A stretch of 56,577 bases of DNA from an uncultured bacterium (GTDB lineage Bacteria; Pseudomonadota; Alphaproteobacteria; SP197): assembly GCA_938014945.1 (NCBI GenBank), contig CALLQH010000080.1, positions 1-56,577 on the forward strand, written 5' to 3'. A program made the translations under genes and the position numbers. A model generated the notes under the pieces. It saw only the letters and a program-made list of their open reading frames with translations, ran no database searches and was not told where the DNA came from. Of this stretch, positions 1,668-53,261 are shown in pieces; position 1 is the first letter of the stretch, and every line of letters begins with the position of its first letter.

Positions 1668-1689
1668 GCACGGGTACTGCCGAAAAGGC

Positions 1690-3552: not shown

Positions 3553-3644
3553 CGCGGCACACTCCCTCAACGCCTCGTGAACCCCACCAACGGCGCAGAG
3601 AAGGTTGCGTTTCGCCGATTTTTTCGGCGGTCACACCGTCTGGA

Positions 3645-8554: not shown

Positions 8555-9396
8555 GCCCCCTCTCCCGCCTGGGCAACCCAGGCATCGGCGACCTCGCTGC
8601 CGCGCGCGAACCAGACGCCGGGGAAGGTCTTGATCCAGGCGATGAACTCCCGCAGCAGGGCGATGCGCGAGGGCCGCCCGATGACCTGGGGATGCATCAC
8701 CAGGTCGAAGAGGCCGCCCCAGGCATAGATCTCGCGGAACTCGTCCTGCCAGATTTCCATGATGTGGCTGTTGGTGAAAACCGGACGCGGATTGCGGATC
8801 GAGAACAGCAGATAGATCGCGTCGTCCAGGCTCCAGTGCCAGGGCAACTCGATGACGCCCGGCGAGCCGTCCGGCAGCCGATGCCGGTAGGGGTTGATGT
8901 CGTCCATCATGGAGCTGTCGTAGAGGAAACCGCGGTCGGTCAGCAGGCGCACCATGTTGCCGCTGGTCTCGCCCGCGGGGGAGCGGTAGCCCTTCGGGGT
9001 CACCCCCACCGTCTTCGCCAGCGCCTCCAGACCCTTGTCGAGTTCGGCCTCCTCGGCGGCGGGGTCCTCGGGATCGATCCACTCGTGGAGATAGCTGTGG
9101 TGGCCGATCTCGTGGCCGCGCTCCAGGATCGCCTCGACGCGCCCGGTGTGGTTCTCGGCGGTCCAGCCGGGGACAAAGAAGGTCGCAGGAATACCCGCAT
9201 CCTCCAGCGTCTCCAGGATCTTCGGCACGCCGAGGTTGGCGCCGTACTTGCCCTGGCTGAGGGTGCCGGGGCGTTTCCAGTTCGCCTTGTCACGGCCGAT
9301 CCAGAGGGTCTCGGCATCGAAGTCGAAGCTCAGCATCACGGCGCAGCGGGCGCCGTTCGGCCACTTCACCTGCGTATCGACAATGGGAGTTGCCAC
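8551..9396 (-). CDS. Polysaccharide-deacetylase (NodB-fold) family hydrolase
   Basis: Motifs WPNGARCAVMLSFDFDAETLW and GHEIGHHSYLHEW. The GTG start at 9396 is preceded by GAGGAG. It is a paralogue of 55459..56343. Confidence 0.8.
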   Translation of the reverse strand: MATPIVDTQVKWPNGARCAVMLSFDFDAETLWIGRDKANWKRPGTLSQGKYGANLGVPKILETLEDAGIPATFFVPGWTAENHTGRVEAILERGHEIGHHSYLHEWIDPEDPAAEEAELDKGLEALAKTVGVTPKGYRSPAGETSGNMVRLLTDRGFLYDSSMMDDINPYRHRLPDGSPGVIELPWHWSLDDAIYLLFSIRNPRPVFTNSHIMEIWQDEFREIYAWGGLFDLVMHPQVIGRPSRIALLREFIAWIKTFPGVWFARGSEVADAWVAQAGEGA

Positions 9397-9409
9397 GTTC
9401 TTGTTCTCC

Positions 9410-10243
9410 TCAGGCGGCTTGCGCGGTTTCCTCGCGCGCCTCGGCCTCGCTGATGGCGATGGGCACGCGGCGCAGGGTGCGGCGTTCGGCGGGGTCGAAA
9501 TCGGTGCGGGCGTGCTGCAGGGCGATGTTGTTCCACAGCAGCACGTCGCCCGCCTTCCAGACATGGCGGTAGCCGATGGCGGGATCGGCGATGTAACCGG
9601 CCAGTTCCTCCATCAGCGCATCGGCCTCGTTGTCGGTAAGGCCGGAGATGGCGGCGGTGGTGTGCATGTGAGCAAACAGCACGCTGGCGCCACTCTCGGG
9701 CTCCTCGCGCACCAGAGGATGCCAGCAACGCGGCGCATCGGCCGGGGCGTCCTTTTCCAGGGTGCGGCGGTTGTAGTCGCCGCTGTAGTCGAAGAGCTGG
9801 AGCGAGGAGAGATCGGCGATGCGCGCCTTCAGCGTGGCGGGCAGATGCACGTAGGCGGCATGGGCATCGGCAAACAGCGTGTCGCCGCCCGAAGACGGCA
9901 CCTCGATGGCATGGAGGCAGATCGCCTTCAGGGGATGACGGAAGAAGGTGTGGTCGGAGTGGAAGTGCAGCACACCGCTGCCGAGGATGCCGTCGGGCCG
10001 GGCGTTGGAGACGTGGCTCGCATCGGCTTCCTTCATGAAGGCGCCACGGTGGGAGACCGGGCCGAACAGGTTGGCAAAACGCACCTGGGCCGCCTGGTCG
10101 AGATCCTGGCCGCGCAGAAGCAGCAGGCGGTGGGCGCGATAGGCCAGGCGCAACGCATCGGCGGTTGCCTCATCGATGGACCCGGCAAGGTCCACACCGA
10201 CAACCTCGACACCCAGTGCCGGCGAGAGCGGGCGCAATTCCAT
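9410..10243 (-). CDS. TauD/TfdA-family Fe(II)/2-oxoglutarate dioxygenase
   Basis: Motifs LGVEVVGVDL, LHFHSDHTFF (H-x-D) and NNIALQHARTDF. AGGAGA lies 5 nt before the ATG at 10243. Confidence 0.8.
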   Translation of the reverse strand: MELRPLSPALGVEVVGVDLAGSIDEATADALRLAYRAHRLLLLRGQDLDQAAQVRFANLFGPVSHRGAFMKEADASHVSNARPDGILGSGVLHFHSDHTFFRHPLKAICLHAIEVPSSGGDTLFADAHAAYVHLPATLKARIADLSSLQLFDYSGDYNRRTLEKDAPADAPRCWHPLVREEPESGASVLFAHMHTTAAISGLTDNEADALMEELAGYIADPAIGYRHVWKAGDVLLWNNIALQHARTDFDPAERRTLRRVPIAISEAEAREETAQAA

Positions 10244-10363
10244 CTGGTTCTCCTGCCGCATAGCGGAACCCGCGGTTGGCGCTTCTTGTACGTCTTGGCC
10301 CGGGCGGGCCTATGCTAGCGGCTTGTCAGCCCACCTGTCAGCCGAACAACGAGGACCCAGCCG

Positions 10364-11551
10364 ATGGATTTCACCTTCAGCCCGGAGCAGATGGCGCTTC
10401 AGGCGCGCGCCCGCGAATTCACCGAAAGACACCTGTTCCCGATCGAGCAGGAGGTGCAGGACAACGACGCGCTCTCGCCCGAGAGCCGCAAGTTCATCCG
10501 CGACGGTGTGCTGGCCTACGGATTCAACGCCGTGAACCACGACAAGGCCGACGGCGGCCAAGGCTACAGCCTGGTCGACCAGTGCCTGGTCTTCGAGGAG
10601 TTCGGCAAGGCGACCAACATGCTGGGCCTGTCGCCCTGGATGCCGGCGTACTGCCTGCGCTTCGGCACGGAGGCGCAGAAGGAGCAGTACCTGCGCCCGG
10701 CGATCCGCGGCGAGATCCGCGAGGCGTTCCTCGTCACCGAGCCGCAATCGGGCTCGGACGCCGGCGGCATCCTGACCAGCGCCGTCAAGGACGGCGACCA
10801 CTATGTCATCAACGGCCTGAAGTGTTTCTCCAGCGGCAGCGAGAGTGCGGACTACATGCTGCTCCACTGCAACGTCGACGGCGATCCGAAGAAGGCGACG
10901 CTCTTCATCCTGGACAAGGGCATGGCGGGCTTCGAGATCGTGAAGCGGCCCAAGGCGATGTACAACGGCCCCAGCCAGCACCCCTGGGTGCAGCTCACCG
11001 ACCTGCGGGTCCATGATTCGAAGATCCTTGGCGGCATCGGCCAGGGCTTCGAATTGACCAAGGACTGGTTCGTCGAGCAGCGCGCCAACATCTCGGCCCG
11101 CTGCGTGGGCGTCGCCGTGCGCTGCGCAGAACTGGCCGCAGCCTACGCCGAGGAGCGCAAGGCCTTCGGCCGCAGGATCGCGGAGTTCCAGGGCATCGAG
11201 TGGAAGCTTGCCGAGATGGCGGTGGAGATCATGGCGGCCAAGGCCCTGCTCTATCGCTGCGCCAGCGAATACGACGCCGGCCTCGACCGCAAGGCAGCCC
11301 ACGCGCGCATGAGCGCGCTGAAGCTGTTCTGTTCGGAGATGGCCTGGCGTATCGCCGACCAGGCGATCCAGATCCAGGGCGGCCACGGCTACATGATGGA
11401 TAATCCCGCCGCGCGCCACTACACCAGCGTGCGTGCCGAGCGCATCGTGGAGGGCACCAGCGAGGTGCAGAAGGTGATCATCGGCGGCCAGATCAGGAAG
11501 CGCGGCATGCAGGTCTACACAGGTCTCATGCAGACGCCCGGGGGCGCATGA
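10364..11551 (+). CDS. Acyl-CoA dehydrogenase
   Basis: Motifs AFLVTEPQSGSDAG, QIQGGHGYMMDNP and ERIVEGTSEVQKVIIG. The stop overlaps the next start as ATGA. Confidence 0.9.
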   Translation: MDFTFSPEQMALQARAREFTERHLFPIEQEVQDNDALSPESRKFIRDGVLAYGFNAVNHDKADGGQGYSLVDQCLVFEEFGKATNMLGLSPWMPAYCLRFGTEAQKEQYLRPAIRGEIREAFLVTEPQSGSDAGGILTSAVKDGDHYVINGLKCFSSGSESADYMLLHCNVDGDPKKATLFILDKGMAGFEIVKRPKAMYNGPSQHPWVQLTDLRVHDSKILGGIGQGFELTKDWFVEQRANISARCVGVAVRCAELAAAYAEERKAFGRRIAEFQGIEWKLAEMAVEIMAAKALLYRCASEYDAGLDRKAAHARMSALKLFCSEMAWRIADQAIQIQGGHGYMMDNPAARHYTSVRAERIVEGTSEVQKVIIGGQIRKRGMQVYTGLMQTPGGA

Positions 11552-13677
11552 ACGAGGAGGCCCGCAGGGAGAACCTGCGCCGCCTGCTGCGCCCGCGCCA
11601 TATCGCCATGGTCGGTGGGCGCGCGATCGAGAATGCCATCGGCCATGCCCGCGCCATCGGGTTCGAGGGCGAACTCTGGCCGGTACATCCCACACGGGAG
11701 AGCGTCGCGGGACTGCGCTGCTACCCCGATGTGGCGAGCCTGCCGCAGGCGCCGGACGCGGCCTTTCTGGCGACCCCTGCGGCAACCACCGTGGAGATCG
11801 TGCGCGCCCTTTCGCAGAAGGGGGCGGGTGGCGCGGTGTGTTTCGCCTCAGGCTTTGCCGAGACCGGCGCGGATGGCGCCGCCCTGCAGGCAACCCTGGC
11901 GCAGGCCGCGGGCGACATGGCGATGCTGGGACCCAACTGCACGGGGTTCTCCAACTACCTGGACCGCGTGGCGGTGAGCCTGGGCAGCCTGACGCCCCTG
12001 CCGCCGCTGGCGCGCGGGCCCGCCTTTGTCGCCCAGAGCGGCAGCGTCGGCCTCAACGCCAGCCGGGCGCGCCGCTCGCTGGACTTCACCTATGTCATGA
12101 GCATCGGCAACCAGGCGGTGACCGACATGGCCGATCTGATCGGCGTGCTTGCCGAGGACGATCGGGTCACGGCCATCGCGCTCTACATCGAGAGCCTGAA
12201 GCGGCCTGCCGCCTTCCTGGAGGCGGTCAACAGCGCGCGCGCGGCGGGCAAGCCGGTGTTCGTGCTCAAGGCCGGGCGCCATGCCCTTTCGGCGCGCATG
12301 GCGCAGTCCCACACCGCCGCGATGCTGGCCGACGACACGCTTTACGATGCGCTCCGTGCGCGCGCCGGTGCGGTACGGGTGCGCAGCCTGACGGTGCTGA
12401 TCGAAACCCTGAAGCTTGTCTCCATCGGCGGCGCGCCACGCGGCAGGAGGCTGGCCGTGCTCACGTGCTCGGGCGCGGACTCGACCCTTTCGGCCGATGC
12501 CGCGCTGGACGCTGGTTTCGAGCTTCCTGCGCCAGGACCGCAGGCGCACGAGGCCATCGCAGCCCTGCTGCCGCCTTTCGGCACGCCCAACAACCCGCTC
12601 GACTACCACACGCAGATGTGGGGCGATGTCGCGGCCCAGGCGCAGGTCATCGAGGCCATGCTCGCCGACGGCCACGACGCGGCGACCCTGGTGATGAACT
12701 TTCCGGTGGTCGCCGACCCCGACGCCTCGCCTGCCTACCGCGACTGGCGGGCCGCGGTCGATGCGGCGCTGGCCGCCGATACGGGAGACGTCCCCTTCAG
12801 CGTGATCTTCAGCCTGCCCGAGGGCGTGCCCGACGACGAGCGCGAGCGACTGGCACAAGCCGGGATCGCGCCGCTGCAGGGTTTCGACGACGCCTTCCTC
12901 GCACTCGCTGCAGCGCGCGACGGTATGGCGAGCCTTACCGCACCGCCGTCCCTTGCGCTCGCGACCGCCCCGGCGGCAACCGGCGCGCGGCAAACGCACG
13001 ATGAATGGGCCAGCAAGCAATGGCTGGCGAGTCTGGATGTGCGTCTGCCGACGGGTCGCTGCGTGGCGCCGGGCGATGCGGCCGGGGCCGCAGAGGCGCT
13101 GGGCTTTCCCGTGGTGCTGAAGGCGGTGAGCGCCGACCTGCCCCACAAGAGCGAAGCGGGTGCCGTGGTGCTGGGGCTGGAGAGTGTTGCGGCTGTGGAA
13201 CAGGCAGTCACGGACATGACCGCGCGGCTTCGCAGCGGCGCAACACCGGTCGCTCTCGACCGTGTGCTGGTGGAGACGATGGCGCCCCGCCCGGTGGCCG
13301 AACTGATCGTGGGCGTGACGCGCGATCCCCACTTCGGTCCGGTGCTCGCCATCGGCGCAGGCGGCGTGCTCGCCGAACTGCTGGGCGACGTGGCCACGCT
13401 GCTGCTGCCGGCGGACAGGGACGCCATCGCAAGGGCGCTCTCCGGCCTCAAGGTCATGCGCCTGCTGGAAGGTTTCAGGGGTGGTTCACGCGGCGACATC
13501 GAGGCCGCGAGCGAAGCCATCGCGGCGATCGCCGCGGGTGCGGCCGCTTTGCCGGAGTTGGTGGAGCTCGACGTCAATCCCCTGTTCGTACTGCCCCGCG
13601 GCCAGGGCGTCATTGCGGTTGACGCCCTGATGGTGACCATTGAAGAGACCATCCCCTCGAACGGGAGTGCCCGATGA
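11548..13677 (+). CDS. ADP/NDP-forming acyl-CoA synthetase (acetate--CoA ligase family: CoA-binding + ligase-CoA + ATP-grasp)
   Basis: N-terminal CoA-binding domain (LLRPRHIAMVGGR...), phosphohistidine-loop-like AQSHTAAMLAD, and a C-terminal ATP-grasp domain (GFPVVLKAVSADLPHKSEAGAV). This is paralogue 1 of 3. Confidence 0.85.
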   Translation: MNEEARRENLRRLLRPRHIAMVGGRAIENAIGHARAIGFEGELWPVHPTRESVAGLRCYPDVASLPQAPDAAFLATPAATTVEIVRALSQKGAGGAVCFASGFAETGADGAALQATLAQAAGDMAMLGPNCTGFSNYLDRVAVSLGSLTPLPPLARGPAFVAQSGSVGLNASRARRSLDFTYVMSIGNQAVTDMADLIGVLAEDDRVTAIALYIESLKRPAAFLEAVNSARAAGKPVFVLKAGRHALSARMAQSHTAAMLADDTLYDALRARAGAVRVRSLTVLIETLKLVSIGGAPRGRRLAVLTCSGADSTLSADAALDAGFELPAPGPQAHEAIAALLPPFGTPNNPLDYHTQMWGDVAAQAQVIEAMLADGHDAATLVMNFPVVADPDASPAYRDWRAAVDAALAADTGDVPFSVIFSLPEGVPDDERERLAQAGIAPLQGFDDAFLALAAARDGMASLTAPPSLALATAPAATGARQTHDEWASKQWLASLDVRLPTGRCVAPGDAAGAAEALGFPVVLKAVSADLPHKSEAGAVVLGLESVAAVEQAVTDMTARLRSGATPVALDRVLVETMAPRPVAELIVGVTRDPHFGPVLAIGAGGVLAELLGDVATLLLPADRDAIARALSGLKVMRLLEGFRGGSRGDIEAASEAIAAIAAGAAALPELVELDVNPLFVLPRGQGVIAVDALMVTIEETIPSNGSAR

Positions 13678-16801: not shown

Positions 16802-16898
16802 GGGTCTTCCGCCTTCCTGATCCGATCTTGTCGGACAACTCTAGCCCCAGCCGGAGCGGCGGAGCCAGAAGGAAGGGATCGGTGTCCCCGGCGCGCGC

Positions 16899-17999
16899 TC
16901 AGGCGTCGAGGCGGTACTCGGTATAGGCGATGGTGCCCTCGTAGGGCGCGCGGGCGATCCACATGACGCGATCGGTTGTGTCCATGATCACCGTGGCCAC
17001 CGTGGAGTGCAGCTCCTCGCCGCTGGAATCGTCCGAACCGGGCGCCGCGAGCACGCCCGAGGGCCAGCCCCACTTGTCGGAGAAGGCATCCTGCAGATCA
17101 CTGACCGTCAGGCTGCCGCCGCCCTGGCGCAGCCGCCGCTCCACGCGGCTGTCGCGGTAGATCGAGCTTGGCGAACTGGAGAGCCCGGTGTCGACCACCC
17201 GCGCACGCGCCGCGGCGGTGCGGAAATGGTTGGCGTGCACCAGCAAACCCTGCTCGGGCTTCTCCCAGAAGATCTCCTGGGGCGTCGTCTCCAGATCGAT
17301 CGCCTCGCCGTCGGCGTGGGAGATCATCAGGTTGTTGGCGAAGGAACGGCGCGCCTTGTAAACGACGCCGACGGCCTGGGCGAAGGTCTCGGCCTCCAGG
17401 ATCTTGCGGCGCATCAGGGGCAGCGGCACGGCGTGTTCGGCCGGAAGCTGGTCGCAGGACAGGAAGTTGCCCGTGACGGCGATGCCCCTGCTGTTCATCC
17501 CAGCGCGCGCCACGATGCCCGCCTCGACGAAGATCAGCAGACGCTCGCCGTTCTCGCGCTCCAGGCGCATGACGATGGCGGAGTCCTTGCAGGCATCGAG
17601 CCAGTCCCAGTTCTGGCCGTGCAGCAGGTGCCCGTTGGCCGTGGCGTCGGGCGTGAGGATGGCGCCGGTGCAGCCGTCGGGTGCCGGATCGCTGCGCAGG
17701 GATCGGTCGTAGAGCAGTTCGGTGCGGGCATTGAGCGCGACGATGTCCTCCACCGCGCGCTCGGCGCCCTCCGCGATGCCCCGGATCTCCGCCGTGATCC
17801 CGGCGTCATAGGCTTCCAGGCGCGGCAGGTAACGCCCGGCAATGGCGCGCACCTGCGCCCAGTCCAGGCCGCGCTGCTGCAGCAACCGGTCGTAGATCGC
17901 GATGCTGGTGGCGAGCCGGTCACCGATCTGGCGGCCGATCTGGCGGCCGCGTTCCAGCGGCGGACCGGCCGCCTCGATCACGGGAAAGCTGCCGGTCAT
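16899..17999 (-). CDS. Peptidase C45 / acyl-CoA:6-aminopenicillanic-acid acyltransferase-family Ntn hydrolase
   Basis: PAPDGCTGAILTPDATANGHLLHGQNWDW, a G-C self-processing site with the QNWDW motif. Start MTGSFPVIEAAG is at 17999. Confidence 0.75.
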   Translation of the reverse strand: MTGSFPVIEAAGPPLERGRQIGRQIGDRLATSIAIYDRLLQQRGLDWAQVRAIAGRYLPRLEAYDAGITAEIRGIAEGAERAVEDIVALNARTELLYDRSLRSDPAPDGCTGAILTPDATANGHLLHGQNWDWLDACKDSAIVMRLERENGERLLIFVEAGIVARAGMNSRGIAVTGNFLSCDQLPAEHAVPLPLMRRKILEAETFAQAVGVVYKARRSFANNLMISHADGEAIDLETTPQEIFWEKPEQGLLVHANHFRTAAARARVVDTGLSSSPSSIYRDSRVERRLRQGGGSLTVSDLQDAFSDKWGWPSGVLAAPGSDDSSGEELHSTVATVIMDTTDRVMWIARAPYEGTIAYTEYRLDA

Positions 18000-18187
18000 G
18001 GCCGGACCCTCGACAAGAAAATCATCGTCATCGCAAGCCTGCCTGCATCTGCTTCGAAGGGCTGCGCCGATGCACCCGGGCGCGCTGCACTGTAACACGG
18101 CATGACGAGGCGCCGGCACCATCGTACGGGTGCCCGGAACACGACATTTGAGTCTAGAGTAACGCCCGGACGGCAGGAGAGCGGGCG

Positions 18188-18880
18188 ATGATGCTGACAC
18201 CCACGGAGATGGAACGGCTGGTGATCTTCACTGCCGCGGAGATGGCGCGCAAGCGCCGGGCGCGGGGACTGAAGCTCAACCACCCGGAGGCCATGGCCCT
18301 GCTCTGCGACGAGATGCTGGAAGCCGCGCGCGACGGGCGCACGCTCGCCGAAGTGATCGCCATGGGTTCGACCATCCTGACGACCGACGACGTGCTGCCG
18401 GGCGTCACGCGCCTGCTGACCATGGTCTCGGTCGAGGGCATGTTCGAGGACGGCTCCAAGATGATCACGGTGTGGGAGCCGATCCGGCCGGGCAAGGAGA
18501 CGGTGGCGGTCTCGCGCCCCGGCGAGGTGCTGACGGGCGAAGGCGACATCGAACTCAATGCGCGCGGAGAGAAAAGCGTTCTGCGCGTCATCAACACCGG
18601 CGACCGGCCGGTGCATGTGGCAAGCCACCTGCATTTCTTCGAGGCCAATGCGGAGCTGGAATTCGACCGCGAGGCCGCCTTCGGCAAACGCCTCGATCTG
18701 CCCGCCGGTGCGACGGCGCGCTTCGATCCGGGTGAGAACCGGGAGGTGACGCTGACGGCGATCGCAGGCACCGGCGAGGTGCGCGGTCTCAACCGACTGA
18801 CCGAGGGCTCGATCCACGATCCGGCCGTGAAGGCAGCGGCGCTCGAGCGGGCGCGCGCCCGCGGCTTCCGGGGGGCCTGA
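18188..18880 (+). CDS. ureAB: Urease fused gamma-beta subunit
   Basis: The first ~100 aa are UreA-like (MLTPTEMERLVIFTAAEMARKRRARGLKLNHPEA...FEDGSKMITVWEPI). The rest is UreB-like (INTGDRPVHVASHLHFFEANAELEFDREAAFGKRLDLPAGATARFDPGE), all in one ORF. Confidence 0.9.
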   Translation: MMLTPTEMERLVIFTAAEMARKRRARGLKLNHPEAMALLCDEMLEAARDGRTLAEVIAMGSTILTTDDVLPGVTRLLTMVSVEGMFEDGSKMITVWEPIRPGKETVAVSRPGEVLTGEGDIELNARGEKSVLRVINTGDRPVHVASHLHFFEANAELEFDREAAFGKRLDLPAGATARFDPGENREVTLTAIAGTGEVRGLNRLTEGSIHDPAVKAAALERARARGFRGA

Positions 18881-18883
18881 GCC

Positions 18884-20593
18884 ATGGCGACCATGACGCG
18901 GGCGGCCTATGCCGCCATGTTCGGCCCGACCACGGGCGACCGCATCCGCCTCGGCGACACGGACCTGCTGGTGAAGATCGAGCACGACCACGCGACCTAC
19001 GGCGAGGAATGCGTCACGGGCGTGGGCAAGACCCTGCGCGACGGCGCGGGCATCGACGGTGCTGCGACGCTGGCGGGCGGCGCGCTGGAAATGGCGATCT
19101 GCAATGTCGTCATCATCGATCCCGTGCTGGGCGTGGTGAAGGCCGACATCGGCATCAACGGCGGACGGATCGCGGCCATCGGCAAGGCGGGCAATCCGGC
19201 GATCATGGCGGGCGTCACCCCTGGCATGACCATCGGCCCCGGCACCAAGCACATGAACGCGCAGGGGCTGATCGCCACACCCGGCGGCACGGACGTGCAC
19301 GCCCACTACGCCCAGCCCGCCGAGGTCTGGCACGCCCTCTCCTCGGGCCTCACCACCATGATCGGCGGAGGTTATCCCGGTTGCTGGTCGATCGATTCCG
19401 GCGGCGACTGGGCCAACGCCAAGATGCTGAAGTCGCTGGAAGAATTTCCGATGAACTTCGGCCTGTTCAGCCGGGGCGGCGCGCACGATCCCGCAACCAT
19501 CCGCGAGCAGATCGGTTCGGGCGTGATCGGCGTGAAGATCCACGAGGATCTGGGCGCCATGCCCGCCTCGATCGACACCTGCCTGTCGGTCGCCGACGAG
19601 ATGGACTTCCAGGTCCAGCTCCACACCGACACGATGAACGAGTCCGGTTTCTACGAAAGCACCATGGCGGCCATCGCCGGGCGCACCATCCACATGTACC
19701 ACACGGAGGGTGCGGGCGGCGGCCACGCCCCCGACATCATCCGTTGCAACGGCGCGGCGCACTGCCTGCCCAGCTCGACGAATCCGACCAACCCGTTCAC
19801 GGCCAACGCGTTTGATGAGCACATGGACATGATGATGATGTGCCACACGCTGAGCGCCGACGTGCCCGAGGACGTCGCCTTCGCCGAAAGCCGCCTGAGG
19901 CCCCAGACCATGGCCGCCGAGGACGTGCTGCATGATCTGGGCGCCATCTCCATGTTCGGGGCCGACGCCGAAGGCATGGGCCGGGTCATGGACGTCGTCA
20001 CCTCCACCTGGCGTCTGGCGCACAAGATGAAGGGCGAGCGCGGTGCGCTGGCCGGCGAACCCTATGCCGATGCCGACAACGCGCGGGTGCTGCGTTATCT
20101 CGCCAAGTACACCATCAACCCGGCGATCACCTTCGGCATCGCCGAGCACATCGGCAGCCTGGAACCCGGCAAGATGGCCGACATCGTGCTCTGGAACCCG
20201 GCCTTCTTCGGCGTCAAGCCAACGCAGGTCATCAAGGGCGGTGTCGAGGTGTGGGGCCCCATCGGCGATGCCGCCGGGTCGCTTTCGCTGGTCGAGCCGC
20301 GCATCTACCGCAAGCAGTGGCCGGCCTGCGGCAGCGCGCCCGACACCCTCTCGGCGATCTTCGTCCATCCGCTGGCCATCGAGAACGACATGGCCGGGCG
20401 CTGGAATGTCTCCAAGCCGCTGGTGCCGCTGAAGGGCACGCGCAAGCTCTCCAAACACGACATGGTGCGGAACGACGCCCTGCCCGACATCCGCGTCGAT
20501 CCCCAGACCTTCGAGGTCTTCGTCGATGGGGAACTGGCGACAAGCGAAGCCGTGCGCGAGGTGAGACTGGCGCGTCGCTACTTCCTGCGCTGA
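18884..20593 (+). CDS. ureC: Urease alpha subunit (divergent)
   Basis: Motifs DVHAHY (HxH), GVKIHEDLG (Lys + His), [27 protein letters not shown] and GADAEGMGR. The start lies 3 nt after the ureAB stop. Confidence 0.9.
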
Positions 20594-20597
20594 GGCC

Positions 20598-21863
20598 TCA
20601 GCCGACGTAGACGGCAGCCGATCCCTGCGCGGTGCGGCGCCCGCTCTCGACGTCATCGGCAACGGCAAGCATGTCGGCGAGCAGAGCGTCGACGATGCCG
20701 GCGTGGCGCGGCGTGATGAGAAGCAACAGGCCCGGCGGGCGCTGCAGACGGCCGGTCAGCCAGCCCTTCTCATCCAGGCCTTCGGCGACCGCCACCATGT
20801 CGAGGCTCTGGGAGACGATGCAGATGTTGGCGCCCTCGGGCCTGCCCAGCACGGCCAGCCGGCCGTCCGCGGTCAGTCCATCGGCGATGGCCCGCTTGGT
20901 CGCCAGGATCGAGGCGACCCGCTCGCGGTAGCCGGCGCGGCCGAGGTAACGCATCACCGCCCACGACGATGCAATGGCGCCGCCGTTACGCGAGCCGCCG
21001 AAGTTCAGCGTGCTGTAGGTGCCTGACGGCCAGGCATCGCTCTGGAACCGCTGAAAGGTCTCGTTGGCACGATCGCGCAGGAGCAGCAGCGAGGCGCCGC
21101 GGCCGCTGTAGCCGAACTTGTGAAGGTCCGCCGAGATCGAAGACACCCCGGCGACGCGGAAATCGAACGCCGGCACAAGCTCGCCCAGGTCCGCAAGGAA
21201 GGGCAGCAGGAAACCGCCGATGCAGCCGTCGATATGCATCCACAGGCCGTGGGCCTGCGCCAGGGCAGCAATGTCGGCGATGGGATCGACGATGCCGTAG
21301 GGATAGGGCGGCGCCGAGCCGACCAGCATCACCGTGTTCTCGCCGATGGCCGCCTCCATGGCGGCGACATCCGCCCGCCAGTCCGGGCTGCTCTGCATGC
21401 GCACAACACCCATGCCGACAACCTGCGCGGCCTTCTCGAAGGCGGGATGGGCGGTCTCGGGCAGGATGATTTCCGGGCGCGACGCACCGGGACGGTGAAC
21501 CCTGCCCCAGTCACGCGCCGTGCGCACCGCCATCAGGATGCTCTCGGTGCCGCCCGTGGTGATGCCGCCAGCCGCACCCGCAGGCGCTTCCAGCATGTCG
21601 AGCGCCATGGCCACGACCTCGGCCTCGTAACGCAGCAGGCTGGGAAAAAGCGCCGCACCGTAGATCGCATTGTCGTCGATGTGACGGGCATAGGCCTGGT
21701 GCATGACGGCGACCACGTCATCGCCCGCCCAATACGATGCCTTGAGATTCCGGGGATCGTCCCAGCGTTGATCGCCTGCAGCGATGGTCTCCATCTCGGC
21801 AAACAGGTCATCGGCGCTCAGGCCCTGTTCGGCAAAGGCCCGGTTGCTTCCCTCATGCGCCAT
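20598..21863 (-). CDS. PLP-dependent decarboxylase/lyase, fold type I (group II decarboxylase / sphingosine-1-phosphate-lyase-like)
   Basis: Motifs GGTESILMAV and SISADLHKFGYSGRGASLLLL (PLP-lysine context). It is convergent with ureC, with 4 nt between the stops. Confidence 0.75.
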   Translation of the reverse strand: MAHEGSNRAFAEQGLSADDLFAEMETIAAGDQRWDDPRNLKASYWAGDDVVAVMHQAYARHIDDNAIYGAALFPSLLRYEAEVVAMALDMLEAPAGAAGGITTGGTESILMAVRTARDWGRVHRPGASRPEIILPETAHPAFEKAAQVVGMGVVRMQSSPDWRADVAAMEAAIGENTVMLVGSAPPYPYGIVDPIADIAALAQAHGLWMHIDGCIGGFLLPFLADLGELVPAFDFRVAGVSSISADLHKFGYSGRGASLLLLRDRANETFQRFQSDAWPSGTYSTLNFGGSRNGGAIASSWAVMRYLGRAGYRERVASILATKRAIADGLTADGRLAVLGRPEGANICIVSQSLDMVAVAEGLDEKGWLTGRLQRPPGLLLLITPRHAGIVDALLADMLAVADDVESGRRTAQGSAAVYVG

Positions 21864-22016
21864 GGATGCGCTCCCCCCAACGGTGTTTGCGCCAGCCCGG
21901 ATTCAGGCGGTTGGCTCAGGTGCTTGCCACGCAGCCTATCGCGATGACGCCTCCGCTGCGAAGGGCTAGCCTTCCCCTTCCGGCAGGGGTGCCGGTGCTC
22001 AAGAGGGGAGGACGAT

Positions 22017-22769
22017 ATGGCCGAATTCGAAGGCAAGGTGGCGCTCATCACGGGCGCGGGGCGCGGCATGGGGCTGGTGGACGCGCTGCTGATGGCAGAG
22101 CGTGGCGCATCCATCGTGATCCAGGAGATCGAAGCCGATCTTGCCGCCGAGGCGACCGAGAAGGTGCGCGCAACCGGCGCGGAGGTCTTCACCATCGTCA
22201 GCGACGTCGCCGACGTCGCCACGACCCAGGCGAAGATCCGCGAGGCCGAGGCCCACTTCGGACGCATCGACATTCTGGTCAACAACGCCGGCATCGGGCT
22301 GGGCGGCGACCTGCAGGACGTGACCGAGGCCGACTTCGACCTTTCCACCGCGGTCCATGTGAAGGGCAGCTTCTTTGCCACCCAGGCGGTGGTCCCGGGC
22401 ATGAAAGCGCGGCGCAGCGGCGCCATCGTCAACATCTCCTCGATCTGGGGCATGACGGGTTATCACAGCGCCTCGATCTACTGCGGCGCCAAGGCCGCCC
22501 TGCTGGGCCTCACCAAGGCATGGGCCAAGGAACTCGCCCCCTGGAACATCCGCGTCAATGCGGTCGCGCCGGGCTGCGTGCTGACCGAGATGACCATTCA
22601 CAAAGGCAAGGAATACATCGACGAGCGCGCCAAGCTCATCCCTCTCGGCCGCTGGGCGCAGCCCGAGGAGATGTGCGAGGCGGTGGTCTATCTCGCCTCC
22701 GAACGGGCGAGTTTCGTCACCGGCCAGTGCATCAGCCCCAACGGCGGCGACACCATCGTCGGCATCTGA
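22017..22769 (+). CDS. SDR-family oxidoreductase (FabG-like)
   Basis: Motifs GKVALITGAGRGMG, NNAGIG, YCGAKAALLGLT and PNGGDTIVG. Confidence 0.9.
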   Translation: MAEFEGKVALITGAGRGMGLVDALLMAERGASIVIQEIEADLAAEATEKVRATGAEVFTIVSDVADVATTQAKIREAEAHFGRIDILVNNAGIGLGGDLQDVTEADFDLSTAVHVKGSFFATQAVVPGMKARRSGAIVNISSIWGMTGYHSASIYCGAKAALLGLTKAWAKELAPWNIRVNAVAPGCVLTEMTIHKGKEYIDERAKLIPLGRWAQPEEMCEAVVYLASERASFVTGQCISPNGGDTIVGI

Positions 22770-22774
22770 ACCGC

Positions 22775-24643
22775 TCAGTTCGCCGCGGTGAGACCAAGGG
22801 CGCCGATCACCGCCGAGGCCGTCGCCTCGGGTGCATCGCCGACCCGGAAGCTGCGCCCGCCAGCAGCGGCGATGACGAACGCGAGTTCGCCCCCGGTCGC
22901 CGCGGCGCTGTCGGCGAAGACCACGGTATCGCAGGCCTGCCACGGCAGGCCGCGGCGCTGCAGGTGTCCGGCATCGCAGAGCAGCACGCCGGCCTCGGCG
23001 ACAGGCTGGGCCAGCACCATGCCGGCGGCACGCACCACATCCTCCACGCCGCGCTGCTGGACCGCCGAGCCGATACCCAGATCACGCCCATCGAACCACG
23101 CGGCGCAGCGGCCCGTGCGGGCGAAACCCTGCACCAGGGCGGCGACCGTTGCCGGGCCCTGCCCGTCCGCCGAACCCACGACCACCACCAACGGCATCGT
23201 CCCGGTCTCGCCGGGGGCAAAGAGCTGGCCCAGCACACCGTCGATCACCTTGGGGAAGACATCGGGAAAGCTGCCGTAGGCCAGCCCCGGGTTCATGTTG
23301 ACCTCGACGATGGCGCAGGGCTGATCGAGGTAGGAGACGGTGATGTCCGGGATCAGCAGGTCGACCCCGGCGATGTCGAGGCCCAGCCCCAGGGCGGCGG
23401 CCTCCGCGAGCCTCTGGTTGTCGGGATGGACGACATCATCGACCGCGACGATCGAACCGCCGAGCTTCATGTTGGCCGTGGTGCGCAACAGCACCGTGCG
23501 GCCCTCAGCGGGCACGCTATGCAGGGCGAGCCCCTCGCGCGCCAGAAGCCGTTCCATGGCTTCGTCCGGCGTGATGGTCACGAGGTCGGCCTGACCGGGA
23601 AGACCACGGCGCGGGTTGGCGTTTTCCACAGCGATCAGCTCGGCAATCGTGCTGCGGCCATCGCCCGCCACCGCGGCACGACGACGCATGGTCGCCGCGA
23701 CCATCCTGCCGCCGCAGACCAGCAGGCGGTGGTCCTCGCCCGGAACCATCTCCTCCACGACAACGACGGGCGCATGACGACGCGCCAGGGCGAAGGCGGC
23801 ATCCAGCTCCGCCTCGTCACGCACATCGGCGGTGATCCCGGAACCACCGGTGCCGCGCTCGGGTTTCACCACCACCGGGAAGCCGATCTGGCGCGCGGCC
23901 GCACGGGCATCCTCCGCGCCAGCGGCGGTAACCTGGCGCGGCACCGGCAGCCCGAGCCGAGCGAGAAGATGCACCGTCTGGCTCTTGCTCCCGGTCACCG
24001 CGCCGGCCACCGCCGAACTGCGGTCCGTGATGGTGCCCATGACCTGGCGCTGGAAGCGGCCGTGGCCGAAGCGCACGTGGTTGACGAAGCGCGCGCCCTG
24101 ATGGAGCCGCTGCACCGGGATGCCGCGTTCGCGCGCGGCCTGGACCATCACGGAGACGGCATGGTCGCGCGCCTCTGCCCTGGCCCGTGCGACAAAGGCG
24201 TCAAGCGCCTCGGGCAGGCGCGCGGTCCCCGCTACGGCATGAGCGACCATCATCAGGGCCGCACGGAACGCCAGGGCGCCGATGGATGCCTGTTCGATCT
24301 CGCAGGCGATGACGCAGTGGCCCTCGTGATCGGCCTTCTCGACCTGGGCCCTGCTCACCGGGTCGCCGAAGATGCGCTGCAGCTCCACGGCCACGGCGGC
24401 CACCACCGTGGCGGACGACACCGGGCCGGTCTCGTCCGCCAGGGCGGCCAGCAGAGGACCGGGCGGGTCGTTGCGGCGCAGGCGCAAGGCGTCGAGGGAC
24501 TGCAGCAGACGCGCCCGCCGCGCCGTGCCGACCGCCCGGACGGGGAGAACGAGGCGCACCCGCAGTGCGGGACAGGGCAAGGCCGGATTGGGGCCATCGA
24601 AAAACTCGGTCCGGACGATTTCCCAGCTTCGAGACGCCGCCAT
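22775..24643 (-). CDS. Cyanophycin-synthetase-like protein, truncated (N domain + ATP-grasp + vestigial Mur-ligase domain; CphA2-like architecture)
   Basis: CphA-like N-terminus (WEIVRTEFFDGPNP...). ATP-grasp core (GFPVVVKPERGTGGSGI, DHRLLVCGGRMVAA, DIAGVDLLIPD, IVEVNMNPGL). The last 140 aa (22778..23197) align to the start of the CphA M domain, but the P-loop reads GSADGQG instead of GTNGKTT. Confidence 0.7.
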   Translation of the reverse strand: MAASRSWEIVRTEFFDGPNPALPCPALRVRLVLPVRAVGTARRARLLQSLDALRLRRNDPPGPLLAALADETGPVSSATVVAAVAVELQRIFGDPVSRAQVEKADHEGHCVIACEIEQASIGALAFRAALMMVAHAVAGTARLPEALDAFVARARAEARDHAVSVMVQAARERGIPVQRLHQGARFVNHVRFGHGRFQRQVMGTITDRSSAVAGAVTGSKSQTVHLLARLGLPVPRQVTAAGAEDARAAARQIGFPVVVKPERGTGGSGITADVRDEAELDAAFALARRHAPVVVVEEMVPGEDHRLLVCGGRMVAATMRRRAAVAGDGRSTIAELIAVENANPRRGLPGQADLVTITPDEAMERLLAREGLALHSVPAEGRTVLLRTTANMKLGGSIVAVDDVVHPDNQRLAEAAALGLGLDIAGVDLLIPDITVSYLDQPCAIVEVNMNPGLAYGSFPDVFPKVIDGVLGQLFAPGETGTMPLVVVVGSADGQGPATVAALVQGFARTGRCAAWFDGRDLGIGSAVQQRGVEDVVRAAGMVLAQPVAEAGVLLCDAGHLQRRGLPWQACDTVVFADSAAATGGELAFVIAAAGGRSFRVGDAPEATASAVIGALGLTAAN

Positions 24644-24649
24644 GGCCGG

Positions 24650-24967
24650 CTATCGGTTGAGGCCGGACACGAGGCCTGCCGTCAGCGAACCGGGGCCGTC
24701 CTGGACGCCGCCCGCCATGACCTGGACGTTGACGGCGATCTCCGCGCCGCTGGGAGCATGGTCGATCTCGAAGCCGACCTGCGCGCCGTCGCGCGGGCAG
24801 AAGAAGCCGCGGTAGAAGACGAGAATCAGCGGATAGCCATCGGCAAAGTCCATCATCTCGTCATAGGGCGTGGCCGCGGTGAGGTCCGACAGCCGAGTCT
24901 CCCGGCCGCGATGATCGGGCAGGCAAAGGTCGGGAAAGGGCTCCCCCGCCCGGGGAATGGCTGGCAT
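24650..24967 (-). CDS. Redoxin/peroxiredoxin-like protein, only N-terminal half (possible gene remnant)
   Basis: GEPFPDLCLPDHRGRETRLSDL...PLILVFYRGFFCPRD resembles the AhpC/TSA N-terminal half. The ORF ends after 105 aa, whereas the family is usually ~160-200 aa. GAGGGAGAG lies 7 nt before the ATG. Confidence 0.45.
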   Translation of the reverse strand: MPAIPRAGEPFPDLCLPDHRGRETRLSDLTAATPYDEMMDFADGYPLILVFYRGFFCPRDGAQVGFEIDHAPSGAEIAVNVQVMAGGVQDGPGSLTAGLVSGLNR

Positions 24968-25041
24968 GGCGGTGCTCTCCCTCGTTATGGCCCGTTCTTG
25001 CATGGCGCAGACGCCGCCCTGTCGCATGCGGTATCATCGGC

Positions 25042-26325
25042 ATGTCGGAAAAGGGATACGCCGCGCTCTTCTTCACGTCGAGAGCCATCGCCATGTTCAA
25101 AGCCGTCGCCTCGGTCTGGGCCCTGCTTCTGGGAGTCGCGCTGTTCATGATGGGCAGCGGCCTCCAGGGATCGCTGCTGGGCGTGCGCGCGGGGACCGAA
25201 GAGTTTTCCACGGTGGTGACCGGCGTGGTGATGTCGGCCTATTTCGCGGGCTTCCTGATCGGTTCGATGATCGTGCCGCGTCTGGTGGCGCGCGTCGGCC
25301 ACATCCGCGTCTTCGGCGCGCTTGCCTCCCTCGCCTCCGTGGCCGTGCTGATGCATGCCGTGTTCGTCGATCCGGTGACCTGGATCGCCCTGCGGCTGCT
25401 GACCGGGTTCTGCTACTTCGGCCTTTTCGTGGTTGCCGAAAGCTGGCTCAACGAACGCTCGACCAACGCCACCCGCGGCCAGCTCCTGTCGGTCTACGTC
25501 ATCGTGATGACCGGCTGCATGGCGCTGGGGCCGTTGCTGCTCAACATCGGCAACCCGGACGGCTTCGACCTCTTCATCGCCGCATCGGTGATGGTCTCGC
25601 TGGCGCTCGTTCCGCTGTCCCTGACGGCCTATCCCGCGCCCGCCTTCCATGAACTGGAGAAGCTGAAGCTCACCCAGCTTTACCGCATCTCTCCCCTGGG
25701 CGTGATCGGCTGCGTGACCAACGGTGCAACCTCCGGCGCACTGATCTGGCTCGCCTCGGTCTATGCCCAGAAGGTCGGCATGCCGATCGCCAGCGTCTCG
25801 CTGTTCGCCTTTGCCTCGATCGTGGGCGGCATGGTGCTTCAGTGGCCGCTCGGCCATCTCAGCGATATCTTCGACCGCCGCCAGGTGATCACCGGAACGG
25901 CGCTGACCGGGGCTGTGCTGGCCATCTTCGCCGCGCTCTACGGCGGCAGCAATCCGCTGATTCTGATGCTGGCCGTGGGCACGGTCGGCGGCATGGCAAT
26001 TCCGCTCTACACGCTGTCGGTTGCCCACACCAACGACCACCTGGAACCGCGCCAGATGGTCGCCGCCAGCAGTGGCCTGCTCTTTGCCAACGGTCTGGGC
26101 GGCATCGCCGGGCCCGCCCTGGCGGGCGGCACGATGGCGATCCTGGGGCCGTCCGGATACTTCTGGTTTCCCGGCGCGGCGATGGGCGTGCTGGGCCTGT
26201 TTGCCCTGTGGCGCATGACGCAGCGGCCTGCGCTGCCCAACGACGAACAGTTGCCCTATGTCGCCGTGCCGCGGACATCCAGCAGCGGCGCCGCCCTGGC
26301 CCTGGGCGACCAGGCAGAGGCCTAG
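25042..26325 (+). CDS. MFS transporter
   Basis: About 12 hydrophobic segments, with the loop motif between TM2 and TM3 (VPRLVARVGHIRVF). Confidence 0.85.
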   Translation: MSEKGYAALFFTSRAIAMFKAVASVWALLLGVALFMMGSGLQGSLLGVRAGTEEFSTVVTGVVMSAYFAGFLIGSMIVPRLVARVGHIRVFGALASLASVAVLMHAVFVDPVTWIALRLLTGFCYFGLFVVAESWLNERSTNATRGQLLSVYVIVMTGCMALGPLLLNIGNPDGFDLFIAASVMVSLALVPLSLTAYPAPAFHELEKLKLTQLYRISPLGVIGCVTNGATSGALIWLASVYAQKVGMPIASVSLFAFASIVGGMVLQWPLGHLSDIFDRRQVITGTALTGAVLAIFAALYGGSNPLILMLAVGTVGGMAIPLYTLSVAHTNDHLEPRQMVAASSGLLFANGLGGIAGPALAGGTMAILGPSGYFWFPGAAMGVLGLFALWRMTQRPALPNDEQLPYVAVPRTSSSGAALALGDQAEA

Positions 26326-31202: not shown

Positions 31203-31234
31203 GGCATACGCCCCTCACCTTTCGGATCATCACC

Positions 31235-39154: not shown

Positions 39155-39272
39155 GGGCGGTCCCTTGTGTGACGGTGTGGAACAAGGTTCGTCCCCGCCC
39201 GGCGTGAGCGCAAGGGAGAAGAATTCCGCGCCTCCGTGAGTTAAACTATCGCTGACCTGCCCGGAGTGCGAG

Positions 39273-53088: not shown

Positions 53089-53261
53089 ACGCGCTCCTCC
53101 AGGCCGGCCGCAGCCGGCAAGGAATCAGCCTAGCGCTCCGGCGTCCCGTTGGCGAAGTGACGCCTGTCACCTCTCGTCCCGGTACAGAATCCACCGGTGG
53201 CCATGGCGGGCCGGCGGGGTTTGTGGCTATGCTCCGCGGCCTGTCATGACAAAGGACGACC

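Follow-up and report, generated by a model that had tools for sequence, protein, structure and literature searches.

A two-gene urease with a fused gamma-beta subunit and no accessory genes in its neighborhood

The window, the whole stretch of 56.6 kb of DNA that was analyzed, contains a urease operon of only two genes. The features relevant to its description are as follows.

18000-18187, forward strand: upstream intergenic region of 188 nt between divergent genes, with a GGAG ribosome-binding site at about 18176-18179.
18188-18880, forward strand: ureAB, encoding a fused urease gamma (residues 1-99) and beta (residues 111-207) subunit of 230 amino acids (Pfam, NCBIfam).
18884-20593, forward strand: ureC, encoding the urease alpha (catalytic) subunit of 569 amino acids, in clade B of the fused-subunit urease family.
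25042-26325, forward strand: MFS_1 transporter of 427 amino acids (Pfam MFS_1), the sole recurrent syntenic partner of the clade-B pair.

The ureC gene starts 3 nt past the end of ureAB on the same strand, and the GGAG motif lies 8-9 nt ahead of the ureAB ATG at 18188. A scan for sigma-70 promoters and terminators around the operon gave no match, and no Rfam family is found in the whole window, so that no riboswitch, for example of the guanidine type, is present among these families. Pfam assigns the two segments of the first protein to Urease_gamma and Urease_beta, and the second protein to Urease_alpha and Amidohydro_1. The ureAB product scores 325 bits with NF009671 ('bifunctional urease subunit gamma/beta'), above the cutoff of 243, and NF009686 is matched by the window urease proteins with 781 bits (cutoff 354). 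The ureC product passes TIGR01792 (urease alpha) by a small margin, with 733.6 bits and a cutoff of 680. The fused arrangement described in the original prediction is thus confirmed, both by the open reading frames and by the Pfam and NCBIfam models. The ureAB product and the H. pylori UreA fusion can be aligned along their entire lengths, and so can the alpha subunit and solved ureases (E = 4e-186 with K. aerogenes UreC). The fold of the enzyme can be considered fixed, because the identity to solved ureases is about 51-55%. No recorded protein matches the alpha subunit exactly, and its best genome match is 79% identical. Among sequencing runs, the only matches are metagenomes, which contain 15% of the words or less. 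A tblastn search of a plasmid collection finds only clade-A and canonical ureases, at identities of 62% or less.

Residues are numbered here as in K. aerogenes UreC, in its own numbering. The ligands of the dinuclear center (H134, H136, the carbamylatable K217, H246, H272 and D360) are all found in the window alpha subunit, as are the catalytic and substrate-contacting residues H219, D221, C319 and H320 of the flap, R336, G277 and M364. The alignment to K. aerogenes UreC bears out the earlier statement that the metal and catalytic ligands are complete, and the motifs quoted with it, including GADAEGMGR, are located in the protein. None of these ligands and catalytic residues varies among 54 clade-B sequences, whose pairwise identities go down to 56%. 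A363 is replaced by Gly in clade B, as it is across the whole fused family, and the loop with A167 is shortened, as in clade A. The open reading frames are unbroken in every clade-B locus examined (about 30), and dN/dS values relative to related loci are 0.08-0.28 for the window ureC and 0.17-0.37 for ureAB. By domains, curated cutoffs and residues, the pair is judged to encode genuine urease structural subunits.

The dependence of urease on four dedicated chaperones for its nickel is a textbook case. Profile HMMs for UreD, UreE, UreF and UreG, derived from sequences at related loci, give no match in any of the six reading frames of the 56.6-kb window (best E = 0.012). Pfam scans of about 38 window genes contain no nickel transporter of the NiCoT, HupE/UreJ, Nik or Cbi type and no CobW/HypB GTPase, and no urea transporter of known type is located nearby. 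These searches uphold the earlier remark that accessory and nickel transport genes are absent from the window. A dedicated-chaperone operon would have ureD, ureE, ureF and ureG in or beside the structural operon, and the window has none of them.

The window pair belongs to a large family of fused-subunit ureases, which falls into three groups: clade A, with canonical pocket motifs; clade B, which contains the window and is so far known only from metagenome-assembled genomes and metagenomes, mostly of aquatic Alphaproteobacteria; and group C, made up of several further lineages. A neighbor-joining tree of 57 sequences gives bootstrap values of 100 for clade B, for clade B with its sister, and for the subclade of locus L100. 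Only loci flanked by 3 kb or more on each side were counted for linkage. Linked ureDEFG genes are found at 62 of 68 clade-A loci, at 1 of 14 clade-B loci and at 1 of 10 group-C loci. The pair therefore recurs in relatives as an isolated two-gene unit, for which the original prediction had asked as a test (13/14 clade-B loci without ureDEFG vs 6/68 in clade A, Fisher p = 8e-10), and 9 of the 10 group-C loci also have no accessory genes. None of the 16 loci of the neighbor-joining set that share the signature of the window's subclade has accessory genes nearby. Orphan pairs that keep the canonical motifs occur in clade A as well (L072, L128, L145 and L146). At one locus, L016, a clade-A ureC accompanied by ureG and ureD is located 8 kb away from a group-C pair, and clade-B and group-C pairs are found together in three genomes. 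Apparent UreG genes in L006, L012, L013, L017, L022 and L058 are out-of-frame open reading frames inside ureC and were set aside with the help of HMM searches.

The clade-A ureases (for example of Methylobacterium, Methyloversatilis, Salipiger and Pseudooceanicola; NF009671, NF009686) have the two-gene architecture of the window pair, with a ureAB product of about 230 residues and a ureC product of 569-570 residues. They share with the window the shortened loop after GG(G/S), the Gly at A363, the Phe at Y541 and the same ligands and catalytic residues, and are 59-63% identical to the window alpha subunit. In contrast to clade B, they do not deviate from K. aerogenes at W222, C319-H320-H321 and S361-Q362. 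Their neighborhoods differ as well: UreD/E/F/G flank 62 of the 68 loci, often together with a urea/amide ABC transporter and a formamidase-like CN hydrolase. In the window's clade, these neighbors are absent and the MFS transporter is the partner instead.

The canonical three-subunit ureases (K. aerogenes UreABC with UreDEFG; S. pasteurii) align with clade B over the full length at a mean identity of about 51%, with identical metal ligands, carbamylatable Lys, flap Cys-His and R336. Unlike the window, they have separate gamma and beta genes, a longer 159-174 loop with A167, and accessory genes in the operon.

A two-gene operon with a fused small subunit, a catalytic subunit and no accessory genes of its own is also seen for Helicobacter UreA2B2. 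The window proteins are below the cutoffs of the Helicobacter models (231 vs 353 bits for NF010592, and 637 vs 1083 for NF010591), and NF009671 is passed. Because the gamma-beta fusion falls below the Helicobacter-specific cutoffs and above that of a different model, the window pair is, on these scores, not a member of the Helicobacter-type family. A search of the PDB with the window alpha subunit gives 574.6 bits for 3QGA chain C, below the 623 bits for K. aerogenes UreC. Helicobacter strains with UreA2B2 also possess a canonical nickel urease. The Helicobacter iron urease is oxygen-labile. As a precedent for a non-nickel enzyme, UreA2B2 of H. mustelae and relatives contains iron (PMC11541087).

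Two further systems are informative about stand-alone structural genes. B. subtilis UreABC has no accessory genes in the genome and is still weakly active (PMC8600894; PMC6737895). Its structural genes stand alone like those of the window, but they encode three separate subunits in a member of the Firmicutes, and the absence of accessory genes is genome-wide there, whereas it covers 56.6 kb here. In cyanobacteria, the ure genes are often scattered, with structural genes located far from ureD/E/F/G and yet dependent on them (PMC6737895). These ureases are a model for accessory genes placed elsewhere, although they are three-subunit canonical enzymes with accessory genes documented genome-wide. 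Literature searches turned up no characterized urease of this type, whether divergent, orphan or fused, and no characterized member of clade B.

The original prediction pointed to alterations in blocks that are normally near-invariant. The changes are real, but several of them are traits of the whole fused family and are shared with accessory-linked clade A, namely HVHFDSA, the shortened GGSLGPITVGIDSGG loop and GSDSQGMGR. The changes specific to clade B are V to A, G or S at x135, an aromatic residue after GGG, W222 to L or I, H321 to T or S, S361 to A, and Q362 to E. Among the positions at which clade A is conserved to 95% or more and agrees with K. aerogenes UreC, W222, H321, S361, Q362 and the loop after GGG are changed in clade B and diversified in group C, and C319 is changed in group C only. 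Flap and pocket signatures differ from one subclade to the next within both B and C. By proximity in the sequence to ligand and catalytic residues, the clade-B-specific changes are not enriched near the active site (7/51 vs 18/190, p = 0.44), and pocket-specific divergence of clade B is not claimed.

In the sister loci L090 and L101 and in L100, a member of clade B, ureE, ureF, ureG and ureD adjoin ureAB-ureC. W222L and the aromatic residue after GGG are already found in both sisters, and L100 has the full signature, all three with the genes for the nickel chaperones. In L010 and L099, relatives of L100 with DNA about 91% identical, ureEFGD has been precisely deleted, leaving a UreD stub of 21 residues. 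A comparison of L100 with this deletion lineage gives a dN/dS of 0.055 for ureC and 0.084 for ureAB, at a dS of 0.31. The structural genes have been under strong purifying selection after the deletion of ureEFGD in the relatives of L100.

The residues of urease that dock UreD have been defined by cryo-EM and mutagenesis, and the D336A variant of HpUreB has lost activation by nickel (PMC10121161). At the positions of HpUreB V332, D336, R338, R340 and Y543 and HpUreA E177, the window has V, E, R, R, F and D, respectively. The docking residues V330, R336 and R338 are invariant in clade B, the window has E334, and D180 of the window ureAB product corresponds to the UreD contact E177. The residue at Y541 is Phe in clades A, B and C alike, accessory-linked clade A included, so that the docking positions do not tell clades A and B apart. 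The acidic tunnel residue (HpUreB D336) is Asp in accessory-linked L100, and Gly in the L010/L099 deletion lineage and in the L006/L089 subclade. Clade B descends from ureases served by linked UreE/F/G/D, and the linkage has been lost repeatedly. This descent is supported by the cassettes in L090, L101 and L100, the bootstrap values of 100 and the retention of the docking residues.

In NCBIfam, the MFS transporter gets no more than a weak match (NF002962, 118 bits vs a cutoff of 361). Downstream of the pair and in the same orientation, an ortholog (E <= 1e-149) is present in 12 further clade-B loci (L001-L005, L007, L009 and L084-L088) and in L095 and L096. It lies immediately 3' of ureC in L005, L084, L085/86, L087 and L088; in the window, an inserted block (20598-25027) parts the two genes. 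An agmatinase-family ureohydrolase is encoded at 36560-37510, 16 kb away (TIGR01230, 203 bits vs 174).

The window pair is probably an ordinary functional nickel urease, with its accessory proteins encoded elsewhere in the genome. This reading is the best supported because of the cassettes in L090, L101 and L100, the retained UreD-docking residues and the orphan pairs in clade A. It was one of three readings offered originally; the two more exotic ones are disfavored, with the clade nested among chaperone-served ureases. In the predicted enzyme, the carbamylated lysine (K217 equivalent) would bridge two metal ions held by H134, H136, H246, H272 and D360. H219 and D221 would orient urea, and the flap residue H320, with C319 and R336, would complete catalysis to give ammonia and carbamate. 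The metal would still be nickel, delivered by accessory proteins encoded outside the 56.6-kb window. The enzyme probably serves to dispose of urea from nearby catabolism of nitrogen compounds, for example by the agmatinase-like ureohydrolase, and its substrate may be carried by the syntenic MFS transporter.

Several observations stand against maturation in trans. The difference in linkage between clade B and clade A (1/14 vs 62/68) is systematic and calls for explanation. Clade-B substitutions are located beside ligands, the TIGR01792 score is barely over its cutoff, and no known urea transporter is nearby. A weak point in the same direction is that a word-limited search with UreG and L100 UreD queries finds no protein from the large contigs bearing clade B among the best 120 matches listed. 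If maturation takes place in trans, the enzyme is one more ordinary urease and mainly matters for annotation, in that missing ureDEFG genes beside ureABC should not be taken as loss of function. Several of the 'invariant' urease motifs vary in the fused-subunit family.

A real possibility, though not the expected outcome, is that clade B and the neighboring group-C lineages have no need for UreDEFG, with a metal center that assembles itself and may not contain nickel, or that, as a variant, the substrate has shifted to a urea derivative imported by the MFS transporter. The ureEFGD deletion under purifying selection and the lost acidic tunnel residue would then be traces of a transition to independence from UreDEFG.

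The form of this in which urea is still hydrolyzed, and the dinuclear center is assembled without UreDEFG from nickel bound spontaneously at low efficiency, as in B. subtilis, or from another metal such as Fe(II), as in Helicobacter UreA2B2, is possible but somewhat doubtful. The lack of accessory genes at most clade-B and group-C loci, the cassette deletion with its low dN/dS, the Gly at the acidic tunnel position in two lineages, the negative UreG/UreD queries (weak, among the best 120 matches) and the B. subtilis and UreA2B2 precedents are all in keeping with it. On the other hand, the window protein retains E334 and other UreD-contact residues, and L100 combines the clade-B pocket with a full chaperone set, showing that this pocket is compatible with chaperone use. 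The activity of the B. subtilis urease is very weak without accessory genes (PMC8600894). For an Fe(II) enzyme, oxygen lability would make the fit to aerobic heterotrophs less obvious, a lifestyle deduced from catabolic gene content only.

The weak activity in B. subtilis and the iron urease of Helicobacter are the exceptions to chaperone dependence met in this analysis. If whole genomes of clade B lack ureDEFG, the clade would be an environmental urease lineage, known from metagenomes of marine, estuarine and lake origin, that works independently of chaperones, with a bearing on the use of urea nitrogen where nickel or energy is limiting. L100 and L010/L099 offer a natural before-and-after comparison for such independence.

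A neofunctionalized urease-fold amidohydrolase, acting on an N-substituted urea, a ureido compound or a small amide that is possibly imported by the MFS transporter, and perhaps with a self-assembling metal center, is unlikely. The conserved positions changed in clade B and diversified in group C, the separate flap and pocket signatures of the subclades, and the linkage to an MFS transporter, where clade A has the urea/amide ABC system and formamidase, would suit a new substrate, and the occurrence of clade-B and group-C pairs together in three genomes is as expected for paralogs with different roles. However, the known residues that contact urea and the metals are all invariant, the clade-B changes are not concentrated near the active site, and the signature residues of L090, L101 and L100 coexist with genes for nickel chaperones. 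Apart from the MFS transporter, there is also no conserved partner, the adjacent aminotransferases being only 26-31% identical. An inactive relic, with structural genes stranded after accessory loss and no active enzyme made, would agree with the absence of accessory genes in the window and the documented deletion in a related subclade, but it is very improbable given the intact reading frames in about 30 clade-B loci, the ligands and catalytic residues invariant across 54 sequences, and dN/dS values of 0.05-0.28.

The immediate neighbors of the operon are as originally reported, with a C45 family gene (NF040521, 268 bits) divergent to ureAB across a gap of 188 nt, its ATG being taken at 17999, and a PLP decarboxylase gene on the reverse strand (20598-21863) that is convergent and lies 4 nt past the ureC stop. 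Conservation of this neighborhood across genomes, which had been suggested as a check, does not hold. The C45 gene was rejected as a conserved partner, as it is unique to the window with no C45 match in 81 loci, and the PLP decarboxylase gene is common only to the window and its closest relatives. A class-III aminotransferase was likewise rejected, on the divergence of the copies beside different subclades. In the closest relatives, the slot of the C45 gene is empty or occupied by an aminotransferase, and synteny with the window picks up again at 18154. A DDAH-like gene is also encoded in the window, and creatinase-like or sarcosine/dimethylglycine dehydrogenase-like genes are found near the urease genes of relatives.

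The two urease genes lie at the predicted positions, separated by 3 nt:

18188-18880, forward strand, ureAB (ORF call), fused urease gamma-beta gene, 230 aa
18884-20593, forward strand, ureC (ORF call), urease alpha gene, 569 aa

A GGAG sequence is located 8-9 nt 5' of the first ATG of ureAB. The UreAB protein carries the Pfam domains Urease_gamma (residues 1-99) and Urease_beta (residues 111-207) in one chain, and scores 325 bits with the NCBIfam model NF009671, 'bifunctional urease subunit gamma/beta' (cutoff 243). UreC contains Urease_alpha and Amidohydro_1, with 733.6 bits for TIGR01792, urease alpha (cutoff 680). Its alignment with K. aerogenes UreC covers the full length (E = 4e-186), and the metal and catalytic residues are all found in it (H134, H136, K217, H246, H272, D360, H219, D221, C319, H320 and R336, in K. 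aerogenes numbering). The predicted isolation of the pair is also confirmed. Profile HMMs from related loci give no match to UreD, UreE, UreF or UreG in the six-frame 56.6-kb window (best E = 0.012), and neither a nickel transporter nor a CobW/HypB-type GTPase is present among the ~38 window genes scanned with Pfam. No Rfam family matches the window.

A set of ~170 related loci (with handles such as L100) was collected by protein search and by scans of species-representative genomes and metagenome contigs. The ORFs of these loci were called and clustered, recurrent clusters were named by Pfam, and all loci were then rescanned with HMMs. The recurrent neighbors are UreG, UreF, UreD, UreE, an AmiC-type binding protein and a formamidase-like CN hydrolase. 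The ureAB fusion precedes ureC in nearly all loci and is thus a family trait. In neighbor-joining trees rooted with K. aerogenes UreC, bootstrap values are 100% for clade A, for clade B and for clade B with its sister pair L090/L101, and 99% for clade B with group C. The window belongs to clade B, in a subclade of 16 loci (bootstrap 100%).

Clade A is found in Methylobacterium, Methyloversatilis, roseobacters and others. It has the motifs HVHFDSA, KIHEDWG, CHH and GSDSQGMGR, and all 100 of its sequences have W222, C319, H321, S361 and Q362, as K. aerogenes does. Clade B, found solely in MAGs and metagenomes among the loci gathered here, has H(A/G/S)HY.QP, GGG(F/Y/W)PGCW.(I/V)DSGG, KIHED(L/I)G, CH(T/S/M/K) and G(A/S)D(A/S)EGMGR. 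The alterations of near-invariant blocks noted in the original prediction are real, but they are partly a family trait, as clades A and B share the shortened loop after GG(G/S), Gly at position A363 and the non-canonical HxHF block.

Group C consists of several further lineages with KIHED(Y/F), in which W222 is replaced by Tyr or Phe and the flap Cys is usually missing (VHH, AHR, SHL and others). Its pairs often adjoin OpuAC-type or SBP_bac_5 binding proteins and MttB-family genes. Accessory genes are absent from the group-C loci L013, L014, L017, L018, L020, L022, L035, L051, L058, L073, L091, L102, L110, L120 and L139. Pairs of clade B and group C occur together in three genomes (CALIUG01, PBNE01 and OZ245842.1); clades A and B were not seen in one genome, in a scan not designed to find such co-occurrence.

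There is a large difference in accessory-gene linkage among the groups. When only loci flanked by 3 kb or more on each side are counted, UreD/E/F/G genes (identified by HMM) are linked in 62 of 68 for clade A, compared to 1 of 14 for clade B (Fisher p = 8e-10) and 1 of 10 for group C (p = 3e-7 versus clade A). The lack of linked accessory genes is thus a true feature of the clade, with the pair conserved on its own in the other 13 clade-B loci, as anticipated. The sole linked group-C case, L016, is a gammaproteobacterial MAG contig where 8 kb separate the pair from a clade-A cluster:

9284-11710, group-C ureAB-ureC
18335-21615, clade-A ureC with ureG and ureD

Maturation of this group-C pair in trans by the neighboring cluster is plausible. 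Separately, a clade-A subclade with canonical pocket motifs (L038, L057, L067, L072, L128, L145, L146 and similar loci) has ureF alone, ureF and ureG, or none nearby, so incomplete or missing linkage is not confined to clade B and group C.

Clade B is rooted in chaperone-served ureases. Its sisters L090 and L101 have the gene order ureE-ureF-ureAB-ureC-ureG-ureD, and the clade-B member L100, with the complete clade-B pocket signature, has a single cluster ureE-ureF-ureG-ureD-ureAB-ureC. The clade-B loci L010 and L099 are collinear with L100 on both flanks (~91% DNA identity) and lack exactly its ureEFGD segment, 1351-3887. The presence/absence polymorphism spans:

L100 1339-3952, ureE-F-G-D present
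L010 2702-2764, ureE-F-G-D absent
L099 2711-2773, ureE-F-G-D absent

Just 5' of ureAB, L010 and L099 still carry 21 aa of the UreD C-terminus (76% identical), indicating that the cassette was deleted rather than inserted. In this comparison ureC and ureAB have dN/dS values of 0.055 and 0.084 (dS 0.31); the structural genes have been kept under strong constraint. These three loci offer a useful natural experiment on whether ureases can dispense with chaperones. No accessory-gene remnants are found in the window or the other 24 clade-B loci (27 loci, 467 kb searched in all).

We favor, by a modest degree, the interpretation that the window encodes a true urease from a distinct environmental clade, which would use the standard dinuclear mechanism, with unlinked nickel chaperones encoded elsewhere in the genome; the scattered ure genes of cyanobacteria provide a model (PMC6737895). 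In an insensitive look-up with UreG of L090 and UreD of L100, no match was placed on known clade-B-bearing chromosomes among the matches listed; absence of UreDEFG elsewhere in clade-B genomes is weakly supported. One UreG match is possibly on the 1,018,080-bp contig of a group-C urease, judging from equal length in bp only, and a link to an 8,753-bp clade-B contig was rejected as coincidental.

Accessory-independent or alternative-metal maturation, for which B. subtilis (PMC8600894) and Helicobacter UreA2B2 (PMC11541087) are precedents, is a possibility to which we give considerably less weight. Cryo-EM and mutagenesis in H. pylori and Klebsiella have defined UreD-contact and Ni-tunnel residues (V332, D336, R338, R340 and Y543 of HpUreB, and E177 of HpUreA), and activation is abolished by D336A, Y543A and E177A (PMC10121161). 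At the positions of V330, R336 and R338 there is no variation in clades A and B and group C, and the Tyr543 position is Phe in all three alike. The window has E334 in alpha and D180 in UreAB at docking/tunnel positions. Clades A and B therefore cannot be told apart at these positions. Gly occupies the acidic tunnel position in the deletion lineage (L010, L099) and the orphan L006/L089 subclade, whereas accessory-linked L100 has Asp there; this change, at one site and not in the window's protein, may be regarded as suggestive.

A shifted substrate is unlikely. K. aerogenes and at least 95% of clade A have the same residue at 241 positions; the clade-B consensus departs from it at 25 of these, including W222L, H321T, S361A, Q362E and the 160-164 loop. 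These changes are not significantly more frequent close to ligand or catalytic sites (within 4 residues, 7/51) than elsewhere (18/190, p = 0.44). Moreover, the accessory-linked sisters L090/L101 already have W222L and the GGG-aromatic change, and accessory-linked L100 has the full signature. No new substrate is therefore claimed. That the pair is a dead relic is highly improbable, as dN/dS between the window and its relatives (0.08-0.28 for ureC, 0.17-0.37 for ureAB) indicates that both genes are functional, as judged from sequence.

The genes around the pair include:

11404-13677, 30989-33322 and 53250-55385, forward strand, ADP-forming acyl-CoA synthetase-like paralogs (CoA_binding_2, Succ_CoA_lig and ATP-grasp_5)
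16899-17999, reverse strand, C45 Ntn-hydrolase, divergent, 188 nt 5' of ureAB if its ATG is at 17999
20598-25027, block between ureC and the MFS gene: group-II PLP decarboxylase (convergent with ureC, 4 nt downstream), SDR, ATP-grasp protein and 125-aa ORF
25042-26325, same strand as ureC, downstream, MFS transporter
36560-37510, forward strand, agmatinase-family ureohydrolase (TIGR01230, 203 bits, cutoff 174)
38249-39385, reverse strand, DDAH/amidinotransferase-like gene

The C45 and PLP decarboxylase genes are positioned as predicted, but their conservation as a neighborhood is not upheld. The C45 gene has no match in 81 loci. The content of the slot flanked by the SAM methyltransferase and ureAB varies, with the C45 gene in the window only, and 16804-18154 is exactly where DNA synteny to the relatives is interrupted. 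A class-III aminotransferase fills this slot in L082 and L083 (the closest relatives read, alpha 96% identical), L009, L002 and L005, and the slot is empty in L084 (88%). The aminotransferases were rejected as a conserved partner, since copies beside different subclades are 26-31% identical. The 20598-25027 block is common to L009 and at least partly to L082 and L083, and is missing from L084, L085, L087 and L088, where the MFS gene directly follows ureC. Its decarboxylase is MfnA-like, below cutoff. The 622-aa ATP-grasp protein is similar to the first two-thirds of cyanophycin synthetase and has no counterpart of its C-terminal ligase portion (NF010623 positions 74-571 of 871, 365 bits, cutoff 877), and the 125-aa ORF has no family match. 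The MFS gene is the sole recurrent partner: another 12 clade-B loci from the first two look-ups, as well as L095 and L096, carry it downstream of the urease pair in the same orientation.

The ureohydrolase and DDAH-like genes are predicted to handle guanidino compounds, and the former would release urea. L085 and L088 share synteny with the window at the DDAH-like, SDR, TPP-enzyme and aldolase genes, and the wider window is catabolic, with TauD dioxygenases and many acyl-CoA enzymes. Relatives carry nearby creatinase-like genes, or sarcosine/dimethylglycine dehydrogenase-like and MttB-family genes. This catabolic context fits with local urea production. Each acyl-CoA synthetase-like paralog lies beside acyl-CoA dehydrogenases and enoyl-CoA hydratases, and the window is a dense catabolic region. 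L001 (12230-19219), a relative with 82% identity, has its urease genes directly beside a defense island with HamA and a DEAD helicase (Hachiman-like), a BsuBI/PstI restriction enzyme and an Eco57I-type methylase.
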